Assembly: GCA_963758295.1 (NCBI GenBank)
Contig: CAVWUU010000004.1
Coordinates: 448,001 to 512,000 of the forward strand
Reading direction: 5' to 3'
DNA from: Candidatus Eremiobacteria bacterium
GTDB lineage: Bacteria > Vulcanimicrobiota > Vulcanimicrobiia > Vulcanimicrobiales > Vulcanimicrobiaceae
DNA: 64,000 bases
A program made the translations under genes and the position numbers. The notes under the pieces were generated by a model that worked only from the letters and a program-made list of their open reading frames with translations, searched no databases and had not been told where the DNA came from. Every line of letters begins with the position of its first letter. Position 1 is the first letter of the stretch. Positions 55,338-61,874 of this stretch are shown in pieces.

Positions 55338-56746
55338 TTACAAGGTAATCGTTACGGTCGTTCCGCGCGCGGGAGCGCTCGACAAGCGGATCGTTCCGCC
55401 GGCCCTTTCCACGGCTCGCTTGCTATTGCGAGTCCCAGGCCGCTCCCAGCAATTTCGCCGCGCTGATCGCCGCGATAGAAACGTTCGAACGCGTGCAGTT
55501 GTTCCGACTCGGTCATCCCGGGACCCTCGTCGGCGACCGTAATGGTGGTATGGCCGGCGTTCGCGCCTGCCGCCAAGTGAATGGGTGCCTCCGGCGCATA
55601 TTTCAAGGCATTTTCGACGATGTTCCAAATGGCGTCGCCTAGCTCAACGCGGTCGCCGACGATCGATCTTACGCCATCGACGCTGTAGTCGACGATCCTG
55701 GCTGTCGTCAAGGCGTTTTGCCGCATCGACCTGACTGCGAAGCAGCTCCGACAAATCGATCGTTTCCACGCGAGGAGGCGTGTCCGAATCGAGCCGTGCC
55801 AAGCGCATGAGCCGGTCGATGAGCGTCCGCATGTGTTCTTTCTCGAACGCCATGGTGGCGAGAATCTGACGCGCTATCGTCGGCTCCTCGATTGCGCCCC
55901 GACGCAACACGTCGATGTAGCCGCCGATTACGGTAAGCGGCGTACGAAGTTCGTGTCCCGCATCGGCGACGAATTGCCGCATGCGTTCTTCCGTCCGCTG
56001 CCGTTCGCCATGGCCCCTGCGACGTTTGCTGCAGCGTCGTTATAGGCGGCGGTCAGGGTGCCGATTTCGTCGCCGCCCGGCGCCAAAAAGCGTCGCTGCG
56101 TAAAGTCGCCTTCCGCAAGCGCGCGAAGCGCGTCGGTGACGTCGGCGATTGGGCGCAGGGCCTGGCGCGCGAAAAAGCGCCCGATGAACCAGGAAAGCAC
56201 GATCGAAATTACCGCGAGCGTAACGACGACGCGCCAATACGGTAAGAGCGAAACGAGCAACAGCGGCAACGAAGGTGAGAACGCGACAAAACCGCCGTCC
56301 ACCGCCGTGAGCGCAAACGGCTCCGCGGGCCCGATGGCACGATAACCGCCCGGATGCTGCATCTCCATTGCTTCGCCTAACCGGCTCGTGGGTTCGGGCG
56401 GCGGCAACTCTTCTTTGCCGCTTAGCACAGCATTCAGAACGGGTGGACGAAGCGTCTTATCGCCGGCCAAAAAGCGTCCGCGCTTGTCGAATACCGCGAC
56501 GCGCAAACCGATGCCGCTCAGAGCGTTGACGATTTCCGGCGCGGCTTGCTGGAGCGAGAGCCCCTCGGCTTTGTACTGCTCGGTGAGTATGCGCGCTTCT
56601 TCGTGCTTTGCGATAACGATGTCGCTCGTAAAGTTCGTCAGTTCCATGACGAGCGCGATGCTCGAGGCGAGAATGACGAGCAGAATCGTAATACCAAGAA
56701 GCGTCGCGTACAACCACGACAGCCGGGATGCGAGAGATTGCTTCAT
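55338..56746 (-). CDS. HAMP-containing sensor histidine kinase, with three apparent frameshifts
   Basis: Two TM, HAMP (DEIGTL), ADAGHELRTPL, NIVENALKY, DEGPG, GSGLGLAI spread over ORFs 55928-56746, 55644-55982, 55352-55726 and 55338-55628. Confidence 0.88.
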
Positions 56747-56749
56747 GCG

Positions 56750-57438
56750 TTACTGCGAAAGCCCGTAACCGACGCCGCGAACCGTGCGGATGAAAGAGCC
56801 GGGTTCGCCGGGCCGGTCGATCTTCGAACGCAAGTACGAGATATACGTTTCGACGATGTTCGGGCCGCCTTCGAAATCGTGACCCCATACGATCTCGAGC
56901 AGATGATCTTTGCTGAAGACGCGCCGCGGCTCGCGCATGAAACACCGAAAGCAAATCGAACTCTCGCTGCGTCAGATCGATTGATTCTTTGCCTCGCCAG
57001 GCTTCGCGCGTGGACGGGTTCACGGACACATCGTGCCAGCGAACGATATTTTCTTCGATGAGTTGCGGGCGCCGCAGCTTGGCTTGCAAGCGTGCAATGA
57101 GCTCTTCGAACACAAACGGCTTCACCAAATAGTCGTCTGCGCCGGCGCTCAAACTCGCAACTTTTCCTTCGGTATCGCCCTTGGCGGTTAGCATGAGGAT
57201 CGGCGCTTGCGTGAGTTCGCGGAGCTTTGGCAGCAACGTAATACCGTCGATTTTCGGCATCATGATGTCGAGAACGATCACTTCGGGATCGAAGCGACTG
57301 TACGAGGTCCAGCGCCGCACTACCGTCGGCGGCCGTCTCGACTTGATAGCCTTCGCGAGAAAGCCCCAGTTGGAGCATTTCGCGAATCATGCGGTCGTCG
57401 TCGATCACGGCGACACGAGCGTTGAACATACCGAGCAT
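56750..57438 (-). CDS. OmpR/PhoB-family response regulator, with two apparent frameshifts
   Basis: VIDDD, LDIMMP, ADDYLVKPF, LTQREFDLL, VETYISYLRSKI...TVRGVGY. Confidence 0.9.
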
Positions 57439-57486: not shown

Positions 57487-57942
57487 TCAAGCGGCGTGCA
57501 GTGGTGAATGCCAGCGGCGATATGTTCCTCCGGAGATGAGCGCCGCTTGACGGATCGCTTCTAAGGGGTGGGAAATGAGCGTCACGCCCGAGCGGCGCAA
57601 TCCGGCGACAAGGACGTCATCCGGGAACCACCGCGCGAACAAGTGCACTTCCGCCGTACCTGCCGCCTCGGCTAGAAGGGCGAGGACGTCGGCGAGGCTG
57701 CATTCGACCCGGGTGAGGAGCCGCTCGACGACTTCAGTGCGGAATCGCGGGCCGTTCCACCCGGCCGCCATGACGAGGACCTTCGAAAGATCCGCTGCCT
57801 CCGTCGACTCGAAGTCGACGAGAGCCGCTTTTACGTTGGCCGCGATCAGCGGATCGGTCTGCGCGTGCAGCGTAGCCCCTGCGATCGTTGCGTGCGGGCC
57901 GGCCGTGAGGAGGGCGCCGGAACCGATGACGTAGTCGTTCAT
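57487..57942 (-). CDS. Hypothetical protein
   Basis: 151-aa ORF with normal codon usage; no motif recognised. Confidence 0.65.
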   Translation of the reverse strand: MNDYVIGSGALLTAGPHATIAGATLHAQTDPLIAANVKAALVDFESTEAADLSKVLVMAAGWNGPRFRTEVVERLLTRVECSLADVLALLAEAAGTAEVHLFARWFPDDVLVAGLRRSGVTLISHPLEAIRQAALISGGTYRRWHSPLHAA

Positions 57943-58058: not shown

Positions 58059-59045
58059 TTACGCCGAGGAAAGGTGAAGGTTCGCGTGCGACACGATCGG
58101 CGTTCGCTTTGCGAACATGCCAAGCATCGCGTCGACGACGTCGGGATCCCATTGACGGCCGCGGCCCGCTTCGAGAATCGCAAGCGCTTGCCGCGGAGGG
58201 ATCGGATTGCGGTACGGACGCTCGCTGATCATCGCGTGGAACGCGTCGGCCACGGCCACGATGCGGGCTTCGAGCGGGATGCTCGTGCCGGCCAAGCCGT
58301 CGGGATAGCCGGCACCGTCGTACCGCTCGTGGTGAGCACGAACGATGAGCGAGCAGCGTTGCAGCGTCGGAATTTGATTGAGCACTCGTGCGCCGGCAGC
58401 GGCGTGTTCCCGCATGATGTCCCACTCGTCGGGGGTCAGCGGCCCGTTCTTCAGCAGAATGGAATCGGGCGTCGAAATCTTGCCGATGTCGTGCAGCAGG
58501 GCGCAGAGCGAGATGAACTCGGCCATCTCTTCATGGCATCCCATGGCGAGAGCAAGGCGGCGCGCCCATTCGGCGGTCGCTTTGGAGTGACAGCACGTCC
58601 CATGATCGCGTTCGGACAACATGGCGAGCAGGGCGTTTGTACTTTCGGAATAGCCCGCTTCCCCATGCTCTTCCACTTCGGCGCCGAGGGCGCCGCGCTC
58701 GATTTCCCGTACGAGGACGTCTAGAAACGCCAGCAGGCGACCGTGTTCGACGTCGAACGGCGCGGCCGCAAGAGCGATCGCGTGGACGGCGGCGGCGGAC
58801 ACATCGATAACGCCGGCCTTCCCTAGGGCGGCGGTTTCGCGTTCAGACCAGCTCAGCAAACCGACTGGCTTCGCCAGAGTAAGAGACAGACAAAGCCGGT
58901 CCAGCAAGACTTCTAAGACTTGCTCCGTGCGGCGGTGGCTGGCAAGCGAGGACAAGGTAACGTGCTCGAACGCTTTATGCGCGAGCGCAGAGAGATCTTG
59001 CCCAAGAGCGGCTCCCAGAGCCGAAAGCGTACGAACCGAGGACAT
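58059..59045 (-). CDS. HD-GYP domain protein (predicted cyclic dinucleotide phosphodiesterase) with an unrecognised helical N domain
   Basis: ALLHDIGK, HHERYDGAGYPDGL, VADAFHAM...RPY; likely start MSSVRT at 59045. Confidence 0.92.
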   Translation of the reverse strand: MSSVRTLSALGAALGQDLSALAHKAFEHVTLSSLASHRRTEQVLEVLLDRLCLSLTLAKPVGLLSWSERETAALGKAGVIDVSAAAVHAIALAAAPFDVEHGRLLAFLDVLVREIERGALGAEVEEHGEAGYSESTNALLAMLSERDHGTCCHSKATAEWARRLALAMGCHEEMAEFISLCALLHDIGKISTPDSILLKNGPLTPDEWDIMREHAAAGARVLNQIPTLQRCSLIVRAHHERYDGAGYPDGLAGTSIPLEARIVAVADAFHAMISERPYRNPIPPRQALAILEAGRGRQWDPDVVDAMLGMFAKRTPIVSHANLHLSSA

Positions 59046-59077
59046 TGATGGATACCGAAAGCGAAAAGCTGCTCGGG

Positions 59078-59146
59078 TTAGCCCATTCCGGTCGGGGGAT
59101 AGTTGCACGCGACGACAAAGGCGGCGATGGCGAGAAGGGTGATCAT
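59078..59146 (-). CDS. Unannotated 22-aa peptide MITLLAIAAFVVACNYPPTGMG
   Basis: Manual translation; GAGGA RBS 12 nt upstream; mostly G/C-ending codons; hydrophobic N-half. Confidence 0.7.
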   Translation of the reverse strand: MITLLAIAAFVVACNYPPTGMG

Positions 59147-59187
59147 GTAATTTGGGCTTCCTCAATAAAAACGAGTTGTCTGCCCAA

Positions 59188-59234
59188 AAGATAGCCTAGG
59201 CCAATCGGCCCGGTCCCTACTTAGTTTTAAGTAG
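59188..59234 (-). promoter_or_regulatory. Palindromic operator and activator-dependent promoter for the peptide/HD-GYP unit
   Basis: CTACTTA-N4-TAAGTAG at 59217-59234, then 23 nt, then a TATCTT -10 (59188-59193); no consensus -35. Confidence 0.7.
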
Positions 59235-59240
59235 AGCCGT

Positions 59241-61874
59241 TTACAGCGCGTCCTCCAAGTACCCCATGCGCCGTGCGGTCGCTATTGCTTCCGCTCTACC
59301 GTGACAGCCGAGCTTCTCTATCAGGTTTTGAATATGGGTCTGAACCGTATAAACGCTACGCTCCATCTCGGCTGCTATATCCTTGGTCGTTAAGCCGCTC
59401 GCCAAAGAGCGAATGATGCGGAGTTCCGAGGGTGTTAGCTTGATGAAGACCTCTTGGGTGTGCGACGACTCGACGTACGTGGCGCTCGCCCGCAGATAGC
59501 GCCCGTAGTTTCCGAAGCCGAAGCTTTCGAGAGCCGCGATTCGCAACGCGATATCGTCCGGCACGTAAGACGCGCTCTTCGCCGCGCGTGACAACTGCTC
59601 GACCGCCTCTCGCATGCATACCATCGCTTCGGTAGAGCAGATCGGCGGCCGCTTCAAGATTCGCTGCGCTGCCGTGTGGCGGCCGCTAAGGGCTTCCGCC
59701 ATCGCGCTCAGCAGCAACGCCGCTTCGTAAACGGCGCTGCCGTATTCCCCCGGTGAACCCGAGGGCAGCTTGTCGAGGACGCCTTCCACGGCCTCGGCGC
59801 TCTCCTTAGCTTTGGAGTTCAGGGCCAGGCACAAGGCGCGGAATGCCGCGGTCGCGGCACGATCGGCGGCATGCGCCGACCGTTCTTGGACGATGCCGAA
59901 GAGACGCGCGGCCTCCGCAAACTCTCCGTTCCACGCATGACGGTGGGCTTGGCTCGCCATGACGTATGGTGCGCGCATGGTGTCGCTCGGCCGGAGATCC
60001 GCCAGCTGACGCTCGATTTGGAGCGAGCGCTCGGCATTGCCGCGCTTGATTTCTTGCGCGAGCATTTGCAGGAGCGAGATCTGCAAATCAAAGTAATCGC
60101 CGGCTTTCGTAGCGGCGGCCGCTGCCTGCTGCGAATACCATGAAGCTAGGCTCGTATCGCCGTCGCCGAGCGCCGCACACGCGGAGAGCGCCTGATACGC
60201 GCGCGAGGCGAGACTCCAGAGGCCGCTCGACGACGCGAGCTCCGCGGCTTTTTCTTGATAGCTCTTCGCACGATCGATATCGCCGCTCTCCTGGCGCGCG
60301 AGGCCGATACGTTGCAAGAGTTTGGCGAGCAGCGGAACCTCGATCACGTCGTCGAGCGATCCCTCCACGACGGTGATGTTTGCGGCCGCGCGCTGAACGT
60401 CGCCCGTGCGCACCGCAAAGACCGCGAGCATTGCGCGCGCTTCCAGTTTCGTTGTATCAGGCGCGTCGCTTTCGAGCAGCGAAAGGAGCAGCTCGTTCGG
60501 ATCGCGTCCCTGATTGACCAAGAACATCGCGAGCCGCAAAACCAGGTCTGCGCGAACTCGCGGATCGCCGCCCAAGCGAATAGCACGCTGCAGATGACGT
60601 TCGCCGGAATCGTAGCGGCCGGCTGCGATTTCGAGGATTCCTTTGAGGCCGTTCAAGATCGCTTCGCGCGCGTGCATCGGCGGCGGAATCGCTTCCAACG
60701 CACGCGTCACGACGTCGCCATGCCCCTGCGTAATCAGATACATGCCGTGCGCGAGCAATAGCTGGACCATGTGTTCCGGGCTGCCGGCATCGACGAAAAG
60801 ATTCAGCGCCGCATCGAAGTCGCCGCGCTTCTGCAGCACGGCGCCGAGCGTTACCCGGCGTTCGAGCGCTACGCGCTTTCCTTGCAACGCCAATTGGTGC
60901 TGGACGAATTCACGGAACAGATCGTGCAGGCGATACCCGGCGGCGTGCTCGTGAATGAATGCAACGCGTTGACGCAAATCTTCGATCATCGCAGCGGCTC
61001 GATCGAAGCCCGCCTCGGTCATCACGTCGACGTTGATCTCGGAAAGCAGCGAAGCGCTCTCGATAAAGCAGCGTTCTTCTTCATTCAGCGTCGCGTAGAC
61101 TTGCTCGGCGAGATAACGGTAGATCATCTCGCGCGTCATCGTCGAGATGTTGCGCAGATCGATCGAACGCGTCGACGAACGCAGGGCGAAACTGATTGCC
61201 GTCGCCCAGCCGTCGGTCAAATGCAGAAGATCGTAAAGCTCTTCGTCTCGCACGCCCAGGCGGAACGTGCGCGCGGCTTCTTTCGCCTCGTCGACGGAAA
61301 ACTTCAGGTCGTGTTCGTCGATGGCAAGGTCGCTATCGCCATACGCGAGCCAGGTGCCGATCGGGAGACCGAGCGTCGAGCGCGACGCAATGATCCATTG
61401 CACGCGCCCCTTCGTGCGTTCGATGAGCGCGCTCAAGAAACGCGTCACTTCGCGGTCTTCTTGCGCCACGTGCAAATCGTCGATGGCGATGACGCCTCGA
61501 TATGACTTCACGTGGGAGTGCATCCAAAGGGCCAGGTCCGCGCCGGGATTGGCAGATCCGGCGTTCTTCTCGTAGGCGCCCGGCAACGTGGCGCGCGCGT
61601 CGGGAGCGATTTCGATCAGCGCGTCGGCGAAGCCGCGCAAAAAGCCGAGCAGTGCCCCGTGGTCGCTTCTCACGTCAAAGCGAACGCACGACTCCTTGCT
61701 TGCCTCCAAGAATTGAGCTAACGCCACCGACTTGCCGTATCCGGCAGGCGCTACGATCAGCACGACACGCTGCATTGCTGCAGACGCGATCCGATCGATT
61801 ACGCGACGGCGCACGATCGGTACAAAAACTCCGCCGGTCTCTATGGTGCCGTCGGAGCGAACGGGCCGGATCAT
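59241..61874 (-). CDS. MalT-like STAND ATPase with helical-repeat sensor region and C-terminal LuxR HTH
   Basis: APAGYGKS Walker A, IAIDDLH Walker B, TDGW, YRLHDLFREF, LTPSELRII..LASG.TTKDIA...TVQTH..N...KLG. Confidence 0.93.
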   Translation of the reverse strand: MIRPVRSDGTIETGGVFVPIVRRRVIDRIASAAMQRVVLIVAPAGYGKSVALAQFLEASKESCVRFDVRSDHGALLGFLRGFADALIEIAPDARATLPGAYEKNAGSANPGADLALWMHSHVKSYRGVIAIDDLHVAQEDREVTRFLSALIERTKGRVQWIIASRSTLGLPIGTWLAYGDSDLAIDEHDLKFSVDEAKEAARTFRLGVRDEELYDLLHLTDGWATAISFALRSSTRSIDLRNISTMTREMIYRYLAEQVYATLNEEERCFIESASLLSEINVDVMTEAGFDRAAAMIEDLRQRVAFIHEHAAGYRLHDLFREFVQHQLALQGKRVALERRVTLGAVLQKRGDFDAALNLFVDAGSPEHMVQLLLAHGMYLITQGHGDVVTRALEAIPPPMHAREAILNGLKGILEIAAGRYDSGERHLQRAIRLGGDPRVRADLVLRLAMFLVNQGRDPNELLLSLLESDAPDTTKLEARAMLAVFAVRTGDVQRAAANITVVEGSLDDVIEVPLLAKLLQRIGLARQESGDIDRAKSYQEKAAELASSSGLWSLASRAYQALSACAALGDGDTSLASWYSQQAAAAATKAGDYFDLQISLLQMLAQEIKRGNAERSLQIERQLADLRPSDTMRAPYVMASQAHRHAWNGEFAEAARLFGIVQERSAHAADRAATAAFRALCLALNSKAKESAEAVEGVLDKLPSGSPGEYGSAVYEAALLLSAMAEALSGRHTAAQRILKRPPICSTEAMVCMREAVEQLSRAAKSASYVPDDIALRIAALESFGFGNYGRYLRASATYVESSHTQEVFIKLTPSELRIIRSLASGLTTKDIAAEMERSVYTVQTHIQNLIEKLGCHGRAEAIATARRMGYLEDAL

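Follow-up and report, generated by a model that had tools for sequence, protein, structure and literature searches.

The stretch of DNA considered here comprises 64,000 nucleotides of contig CAVWUU010000004.1 from a Candidatus Eremiobacteria bacterium (assembly GCA_963758295.1, positions 448,001 to 512,000), and the whole of it is referred to as the window. On the minus strand of the window, in the 5' region of a gene for an HD-GYP phosphodiesterase, there is an open reading frame (ORF) of only 22 codons, which an initial annotation had proposed to be a hidden gene for a very small peptide. The question raised by this locus is whether so short a frame is a gene at all and, if it is, what its product may do next to an enzyme of cyclic di-GMP (c-di-GMP) turnover. 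The comparison with related genomes indicates that this micro-ORF is almost certainly a real coding gene under selection at the amino-acid level. By gene order it is the first cistron of a predicted operon that continues with the HD-GYP gene and a gene for a protein of 151 amino acid residues.

The micro-ORF and its peptide

Read directly from the sequence of the minus strand, the start codon ATG occupies positions 59146..59144 and the stop codon TAA positions 59080..59078; the 22-codon frame and its peptide are exactly those quoted in the initial annotation. ATG 59146 is the sole start codon between the two stops that delimit the frame, and five non-start codons lie ahead of it. The peptide consists of 13 mostly hydrophobic residues followed by Cys14 and the sequence NYPPTGMG. 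The first Pro is preceded by 16 residues in the window and by longer stretches in other loci. The segment VVAC does fit the lipobox pattern and, as had also been stated, there is no basic n-region, the peptide containing neither Lys nor Arg.

The micro-ORF had been described as absent from the ORF track, in which the HD-GYP ORF extends over it in another frame. The overlap is real: the HD-GYP frame is open back to TTG 59165 and overlies the micro-ORF, which is why the latter is hidden in the track, and the frames differ, since the distance between the two ATG codons (59146-59045 = 101) is not a multiple of three. The absence is not complete, as the micro-ORF is included in the mechanical ORF list at a minimum of 20 amino acid residues (59078..59146, minus strand). 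In the window it is separated from the HD-GYP start at 59045 by 32 nucleotides.

At 60% G+C the chance of an open frame of 24 codons, the median length of the family, is about 0.46 according to our own estimate from base composition. A 22-codon frame is therefore unremarkable alone, and the case depends on the comparison with relatives. Within its own genome the micro-ORF is present in a single copy, found by a profile hidden Markov model with an E-value of 6.7e-9 (the next match has 0.18), and has no paralogues. It is intact although the window assembly has frameshifts in nearby genes, and it is 95% identical to its counterpart in the closest relative, L002.

Conservation among relatives

The N-terminal domain of the HD-GYP protein (135 amino acid residues) was used as the search query and gave one orthologue each in 91 of the 385 genomes of the class. 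All 91 belong to one family of soil bacteria and are distributed over 25 of 89 genera. The upstream DNA of 89 of these loci was analysed; left out were one locus whose contig ends 10 nucleotides upstream and one from an unpublished genome. The unpublished genome G004 (locus L005) is counted in the locus tallies and in the peptide-composition statistics given below, and further unpublished genomes are included in the orthologue tallies of the class and family searches, while the alignments used for folding include none.

An intact micro-ORF of 20-45 codons (median 24) is found just upstream of the HD-GYP gene in 86 of the 89 loci, representing 25 genera. Its end is located between 14 nucleotides inside and 57 nucleotides upstream of the estimated HD-GYP start. 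In two of the three exceptions, L051 and L092, the frame is split by a frameshift, and in the third, L097 (genome G282), there is no micro-ORF. In L097 the HD-GYP orthologue abuts the 3' end of another HD-GYP-type gene in a tandem arrangement, and the upstream sequence comprises 644 nucleotides.

A profile seeded with 42 clear peptides was searched against the 5604 six-frame segments of the 89 loci. It matched 66 of the loci at E<0.05, 24 of which had contributed no seed, and every one of these matches is on the sense strand directly before the HD-GYP gene; the best match anywhere else among the segments has an E-value of 0.96.

The full-length HD-GYP profile finds relatives in 207 of the 348 genomes of the family. 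In genus g87 a hydrophobic ORF with the ending P-[PSA]-x-G-x is present in all 19 sampled loci and stops 5-27 nucleotides before the HD-GYP start. These ORFs apparently begin at GTG, to judge from the translations (Lys-Glu-(Pro) and then Val before the hydrophobic stretch) rather than from the DNA. None of the 91 genomes of g44, the largest genus of the family, matches the profile of HD-GYP orthologues at E<=1e-50, and the module seems to be missing from the whole genus. Public records that carry a name and share the arrangement of the window are labelled Vulcanimicrobiota, Eremiobacterota or Baltobacteraceae, save a few differently labelled bins of metagenome-assembled genomes.

The 86 peptides share a general layout, a hydrophobic head without charge and then a Pro/Gly tail with the pattern [MLIV]-P-[PSA]-x-G-x. 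The start codon is ATG in 79 of them, 71 have L, I, V or F as the second residue, and Thr occupies position 3 in 58. Lys or Arg occurs anywhere in a single peptide, and within the first seven residues also in one. Among the last eight residues there is at least one Pro in 83 peptides, at least two in 69 and a Pro-Pro pair in 57, and the C-terminal residue is Gly in 62. The frames are closed by TAA (44), TAG (39) and TGA (3), while TGA ends 754 of the 1953 long open frames (39%) in the window's own genome. When 65 of the peptides were compared with Pfam and NCBIfam, no family was found, only scattered single-member matches with E >= 0.003.

A subgroup of loci (L054, L056-L058, L060-L063, L006, L059 and L047) encodes longer, His-rich peptides of 35-45 residues, which contain an internal A-L-P-G and then the usual S-P-P-x-x-V-G end. 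Long variants of at least 36 residues also occur in public protein sets, where an alignment of them found 18 proteins. Three of these carry a source name, "hypothetical protein", the other 15 are unnamed, and no Pfam domain is assigned.

Selection on the reading frame

In 11 independent pairs of equal length, the ratio of non-synonymous to synonymous differences (pN/pS) is 0.37 in the frame of the micro-ORF, the other two frames giving 1.05 and 1.98. The differences are distributed over the three codon positions as 39/22/71, the third position thus accounting for 71 of 132. Between the window and L002, nine codons differ, with NG86 counts of 9.0 synonymous changes and 1.0 non-synonymous change. 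HD-GYP identity served to select a second set of 18 independent pairs, in which the head has a pN/pS of 0.59, the tail one of 0.49 and the beginning of HD-GYP one of 0.10; by these values the peptide appears to be constrained in composition and pattern more than in exact sequence.

A chance ORF is ruled out by the profile matches at the loci, the in-frame pN/pS and the single match in the own genome. The initial annotation had named conservation of the frame and the pattern of synonymous substitutions as ways of checking its proposal. Both now speak for a hidden coding micro-gene, as the frame is intact in the 86 loci and in the 19 of g87, and the substitutions have a coding pattern in the frame of the micro-ORF only. 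The positions of the micro-ORF and of the features around it are collected in Table 1.

Table 1. Positions of the micro-ORF and associated features in the window
Feature	Positions	Strand	Remarks
MalT-like STAND regulator	59241..61874	minus	877 aa; C-terminal LuxR/GerE helix-turn-helix (HTH); directly upstream of micro-ORF
A/T-rich 18-bp palindrome CTACTTAAAACTAAGTAG	59217..59234	.	putative operator; after the stop of the regulator; strand-neutral
-10-like hexamer TATCTT	59188..59193	minus	23 nt past palindrome; start site predicted
Shine-Dalgarno-like GAGGAAG	59157..59163	minus	13 nt ahead of micro-ORF ATG
Micro-ORF	59078..59146	minus	22 codons + TAA; hydrophobic head without charge (M-I-T...), then Cys14 and Pro/Gly tail
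Spurious N-terminal extension of HD-GYP	59046..59165	minus	40 codons from TTG 59165; ORF-caller artefact
Imperfect hairpin without T-run	59055..59076	minus	starts 2 nt past micro-ORF stop
HD-GYP phosphodiesterase	58059..59045	minus	328 aa from ATG 59045; four-helix-bundle N-domain + HD-GYP domain
Conserved 151-aa protein	57487..57942	minus	third cistron; no known family

Start of the HD-GYP gene

It is important to establish where the HD-GYP gene begins, since its frame covers the micro-ORF. The orthologues from the same genus and family align from residue 1-4 of the query, and their open frames often have 330-340 codons for a match of 328 residues. The aligned N-termini have M-S-x-V-R-T-L in common, and the frame that is open ahead of the conserved Met varies in the relatives from 2 to about 100 codons. 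Over the region of the micro-ORF, pN/pS is at least 1 in both other frames, including that of the extension. The 40-codon extension is regarded as an artefact because the orthologues align from Met 59045 with short open frames, and the start at TTG 59165 is ruled out. The extended HD-GYP ORF that the initial annotation saw lying over the micro-ORF is thus spurious, and a start of HD-GYP at 59165, which it had raised as the counter-case, is not borne out.

The protein matches Pfam HD_5 with an E-value of 6.3e-42, and in its metal-binding HD and GYP motifs H185-D186, H214, H238-H239-E240 and G246-Y247-P248 are invariant in 33 orthologues. The AF2 model has a pLDDT of 85 and Foldseek matches 4mcw, 4r8z and 9rbz. 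The N-terminal domain is confidently predicted as a soluble four-helix bundle (residues 7-26, 39-57, 63-93 and 101-120) with no membrane segment.

Regulator and putative operator

An orthologue of the regulator is found directly upstream of the micro-ORF in 88 of the 89 loci. The protein of the window contains GerE at residues 813-866, AAA_22/AAA_16 at the N-terminus and TPR matches in Pfam. It matches MalT of NCBIfam (NF003420) over residues 20-431 with an E-value of 7.1e-40, the score of 136.8 against 537 bits being under the equivalog cut-off, and MalT in the PDB (8bob) with 4.8e-8. It shares with E. coli MalT the STAND NTPase, a helical-repeat sensor, the LuxR HTH of an activator and a dedicated operator ahead of an operon. 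It differs in falling below the equivalog cut-off, and its operon begins with the micro-ORF and concerns c-di-GMP turnover instead of sugar use.

The palindrome that follows the regulator gene aligns across 86 loci with column identities of about 60-99%, and where it was picked by the inverted-repeat search its 3' end is 61-76 nucleotides ahead of the ATG of the micro-ORF. The bases 4-6 of the half-site vary together with the recognition helix of the regulator. They are CT[TG] in 38 of 40 loci with the helix QTH..QN, GT[TG] in 15 of 17 with QAH..QN, CCT in four of five with QVH..KN and CC[CG] in all five with QTH..KH; seven of the 85 helices were unusable for this count, and related loci in it are not independent. 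The two half-sites of an operator change together across the loci. Because the half-site co-varies with the recognition helix, both halves together, there is good evidence at the sequence level that the regulator binds the palindrome and that the micro-ORF is the first gene under its control.

A conserved block TAT(C/G)NT is found in the alignment 22-24 nucleotides past the palindrome. If it is the -10 element, the centre of the palindrome would be near -44, as for class II activators. A generic scan of 58800-59500 for sigma-70 promoters and terminators found nothing, and a full sigma-70 promoter is not to be expected if the promoter depends on an activator and lacks a -35 element.

Predicted operon and probable translational coupling

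Shine-Dalgarno sequences were scored as at least four nucleotides of AGGAGG at a spacing of 4-13 in 77 loci, nine more having no start codon that meets the rule. Such a sequence precedes the micro-ORF in 60 of the 77 loci and the HD-GYP gene in only 17, the fraction at random positions being 0.10. For HD-GYP the count depends on the gap between the two genes: 1 of 20 loci with a gap of 5-20 nucleotides, 9 of 40 with 20-40 and 7 of 16 with 40-80. In several loci the stop of the micro-ORF overlaps or abuts the HD-GYP start. This asymmetry, together with the short or overlapping gaps, is the reason for proposing that translation of HD-GYP is probably coupled to that of the micro-ORF or re-initiated after it. 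The earlier idea of a leader that controls translation of HD-GYP is retained to this extent, coupling being consistent with both the counts and the gaps, while nothing points to regulated stalling.

The imperfect hairpin after the stop of the micro-ORF in the window has a minimum free energy of -9.2 kcal/mol with z -0.2, which is not significant alone, and the folds of single sequences are mostly non-significant. Relatives have different sequences at this place that pair too, the hairpin starting 1-6 nucleotides past the stop in some lineages. Terminator-like hairpins with a T-run follow the micro-ORF in 6 of 60 loci (0.6 ± 0.8 in shuffled sequences), and perfect stems of at least 5 bp in 18 of 60 (10.3 ± 2.8). 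RNAalifold gave no consensus structure between the micro-ORF and HD-GYP, and Rfam gave no match over 58700-59500, antisense RNA families included.

Possible function of the peptide

We tentatively favour the reading in which the micro-ORF is a coupled first cistron whose peptide works in trans, as a small partner associated with the membrane. The MalT-like STAND/LuxR regulator would most likely switch the operon on from the upstream palindrome, and ribosomes would load at the Shine-Dalgarno sequence of the micro-ORF. After termination they would feed the HD-GYP cistron by coupling or re-initiation over the gap of -14 to 57 nucleotides. The released product of 20-45 residues, with a hydrophobic N-terminus lacking basic residues and a helix-breaking Pro/Gly tail, would not be lipidated and would most likely partition into the membrane. 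There it may act on proteins of the operon; it might, for instance, tether the cytoplasmic HD-GYP protein, with its four-helix bundle, or tune it. Of the mechanisms weighed, a hydrophobic micro-protein that acts in trans and is produced along with HD-GYP fits most simply.

Small single-helix membrane proteins such as MgrB, acting on PhoQ, and Prli42, acting on the stressosome, are reported to modulate larger signalling proteins. They are said to resemble the micro-ORF product in having fewer than 50 residues and one hydrophobic stretch, in being unannotated and in being encoded with or near a signalling protein. There is no sequence relation, and the present peptides differ in having almost no basic residues (one peptide of the 86), an unusually short hydrophobic stretch, a conserved Pro/Gly C-terminus and a partner that is only putative.

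Several observations weigh against a membrane-associated partner of HD-GYP. The hydrophobic stretch of 16 residues in the window is short for spanning a bilayer, and the peptide outpaces HD-GYP in its rate of evolution by a factor of five to six. The pairs L008/L065 and L030/L032 have HD-GYP N-terminal domains that are 98-99% identical and quite different peptides, and any interface between peptide and HD-GYP must therefore be generic. The distance between peptides tracks instead that of the sensor domain of the regulator (partial r 0.18, permutation p 0.015), the values for the HD-GYP N-terminal domain being r 0.06 and p 0.25 in a test that is weak and confounded by relatedness. The terminator-like hairpins fit differential expression better than a 1:1 stoichiometry. 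In genus g61 (L079 in G247, L086 in G248) the hydrophobic head of the micro-ORF product is gone: a tail-like unit (S-V-V-P-V-G-G-A) is repeated three times in tandem in L079, L086 encodes a degenerate Gly-rich peptide, and HD-GYP carries its own Shine-Dalgarno sequence in both.

Alternatively the peptide may be a signal, in line with the released peptide that the initial annotation had considered. A leaderless pre-peptide, or its tail, would be released, and the MalT-like regulator would detect it with its TPR-like sensor, activate the promoter of the peptide itself and of HD-GYP and so tie cell density to the breakdown of c-di-GMP. We consider this unlikely, and somewhat more so its specific form, in which a MalT-type STAND sensor would recognise the Pro/Gly tail of an autoinducer that is a linear peptide without modification. 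The order of regulator, operator and small ORF at the head of the regulated operon is as such a loop would have it. The correlation of peptide with sensor distance persists when HD-GYP is controlled for, although the partial Mantel test is a weak one and related loci do not count as independent. The tails diverge fast within one genus where neighbouring genes are 93-98% identical (L030/L032), yet the overall tail pN/pS of 0.49 gives no sign of diversifying selection. The terminator-like hairpins would yield the peptide transcript in excess, and the tandem units of L079 recall the multi-copy propeptides described in PMC9765709.

The known systems closest to such a loop are SHP and ComS (XIP) of streptococcal Rgg/ComR and PapR-PlcR-type RRNPPA systems. 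They too have a very small ORF adjoining the gene of a repeat-domain transcription factor, with the palindromic site of the factor ahead of the ORF, and the ORF is missed by gene callers. According to PMC9765709, a small propeptide-like gene immediately beside the regulator gene is the RRNPPA criterion, the propeptide lies beside its receptor and the functional mature part is C-terminal; such a gene is found here in the 88 loci mentioned above. Precursors of the SHP/ComS type have 17-32 codons (PMC5167397, Table 1), and the micro-ORF product is like SHP (22-23 amino acid residues) and S. mutans ComS (17) in size and in having no classical signal peptide.

The differences are equally clear. RRNPPA receptors have a TPR-type domain and an N-terminal HTH or three-helix bundle, while the present regulator is of the MalT family, combining a STAND NTPase and a sensor with a C-terminal LuxR HTH; no RRNPPA family (Rap/Rgg/NprR/PlcR/PrgX/AimR) is among its matches in the Pfam and NCBIfam scans. 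SHP has a basic head and a hydrophobic tail according to PMC5167397, whereas here the order is reversed, with an uncharged head and a polar Pro/Gly tail. The phylum is not Firmicute and is reported as diderm in PMC6664022, and translation of the ORF is probably coupled to that of the enzyme gene behind it, which is unexpected for a signal gene. In RRNPPA systems the peptide leaves the cell, is trimmed to a C-terminal fragment and is taken up again to bind its receptor; here, genes for an exporter, a peptidase or a maturase are missing from the neighbourhood in the window. Among the papers listed by the literature search, nothing concerned a peptide-sensing MalT-type regulator, and no paper was found on Eremiobacterota together with HD-GYP. 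If such an autoinducer existed, c-di-GMP degradation would be connected to a peptide quorum-sensing loop, analogous but unrelated to RRNPPA, in a phylum that is diderm and for the most part uncultured.

It is similarly unlikely that the micro-ORF acts mainly in cis, as a leader whose translation sets the expression of HD-GYP while the peptide itself has no job. Ribosomes could be delivered to HD-GYP, open the downstream hairpin or attenuate a terminator, pausing at the Pro-Pro/Gly tail (in a manner dependent on EF-P or on Pro/Gly) or at the stop. The lack of a Shine-Dalgarno sequence before HD-GYP in 60 of the 77 loci, the short or overlapping gaps and the hairpins 1-6 nucleotides past the stop, six of them terminator-like, would be consistent with such a role. 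The frequent Pro residues of the tail point the same way, although Pro-Pro is only suggestive as a hint of ribosome arrest. The rarity of TGA stops suggests selection on the mode of termination. Avoiding TGA after a C-terminal Gly may instead favour efficient release. Ribosome delivery alone needs neither an uncharged hydrophobic head nor Thr3 nor a constraint on amino acids over the full length, and the hairpins are not universal (18 of 60 loci, against 10.3 in shuffled sequences) and share neither a consensus structure nor an Rfam match.

The arrest peptides SecM, MifM, VemP and ApcA/ApdA/ApdP, the latter with RAPP-type C-termini, are also encoded by ORFs directly ahead of a gene whose translation they could control, and combine a hydrophobic N-terminus with a conserved Pro-containing C-terminal motif (PMC10951233, PMC10987492 and PMC7897499). 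According to PMC7897499, those that monitor their substrate are 80-200 amino acid residues long, the arrest site is more than 40 residues away from the topogenic signal, and the genes downstream of them are sec or yidC. The micro-ORF product has 20-45 residues, its hydrophobic stretch abuts the tail, it has no Arg, and the downstream gene is HD-GYP. A chain of this length is still within the exit tunnel when its translation ends. The length (median 24) excludes a force-sensing arrest design.

Other roles in trans are conceivable, which we regard as less likely again: the peptide could act on membranes in the manner of a toxin, serve the 151-residue protein as substrate or cofactor, or be the precursor of a ribosomally synthesized and post-translationally modified peptide matured by unlinked enzymes. 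The peptide is very short and hydrophobic, and the 151-residue protein, a conceivable partner, has no known fold; its structural comparison contains rows for the N-terminal domains of Xaa-Pro peptidases, which might go with a Pro-rich tail. These rows are far under a trustworthy Z, the neighbourhood encodes no maturase, exporter or immunity gene, and no antisense RNA family was found with Rfam over the range given above.

The initial annotation had further suggested a tiny lipopeptide or a Cys-cyclised peptide; in the former case VVAC would be a lipobox processed by Lgt/LspA, with a lipidated C-NYPPTGMG as the product. The window peptide matches the lipobox pattern and its genome does encode Lgt (PF01790, E 1.1e-57) and LspA (PF01252, E 4.2e-33), but Cys is found in 42 of the 86 orthologous peptides and is absent from 44, the lipobox [LVI][ASTVI][GAS]C is present in 11, a basic residue in the n-region in one, and the close relatives L003, L009 and L011 have no Cys whatever. 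No mature protein follows the would-be signal, while among the lipoprotein signal peptides of the same genome, found as weak matches in long frames, several have a basic residue before the hydrophobic stretch and the mature proteins are long. A lipoprotein is thereby refuted as a property of the family, and the lipobox appears coincidental there, small residues (A, C, G, S) closing the hydrophobic stretch. The product is very probably not a lipoprotein, and a tiny lipoprotein, lipopeptide or Cys-cyclised peptide is highly improbable; it shares with the absence of any function the weight that the other readings leave.

Whatever the peptide does, the locus adds a well-supported, family-wide micro-gene to Vulcanimicrobiota/Eremiobacterota, a phylum known almost only from metagenomes, in whose metagenome-derived genomes genes of fewer than 30 codons are never called, and it gives the adjacent HD-GYP gene its proper start. 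The MalT-like regulator with its co-evolving operator, the micro-ORF, the four-helix-bundle HD-GYP and the 151-residue protein form a compact, undescribed module of four parts that ties an input to c-di-GMP turnover, and the co-variation of operator and helix is a testable specificity code. Should the peptide act with the phosphodiesterase as its partner, or on the regulator as a signal, the level of a second messenger would be controlled in a new way.

Third cistron and neighbouring genes

In the 36 loci whose flank is long enough, the gene for the 151-residue protein is present downstream of HD-GYP in 35. The protein matches no family in Pfam or NCBIfam. Its AF2 model is of the alpha/beta type with a pLDDT of 87.7 and a pTM of 0.83, and comparison with the PDB gave no convincing relative (Foldseek E >= 0.028, VIA top Z 5.3). 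Several of the weak structural rows are the Xaa-Pro peptidase N-terminal domains mentioned above, with Z of 3.3-3.9, in the noise range.

Downstream of the operon, at 55352-57438 of the minus strand, there is a two-component pair of an OmpR-type response regulator and a HAMP histidine kinase, both split over frames. The pieces of the response regulator are at 56743-57438 (REC), 56457-57320 and 56750-56938, and those of the kinase at 55928-56746 and 55352-55726. These genes are either pseudogenes or the result of indel errors in the assembly, which consists of 6 contigs with 82% completeness. Besides this pair, the neighbourhood contains genes for an ABM monooxygenase-domain protein, a protein with weak Sortilin-Vps10/FlgD Ig-like matches and a TonB-dependent receptor.

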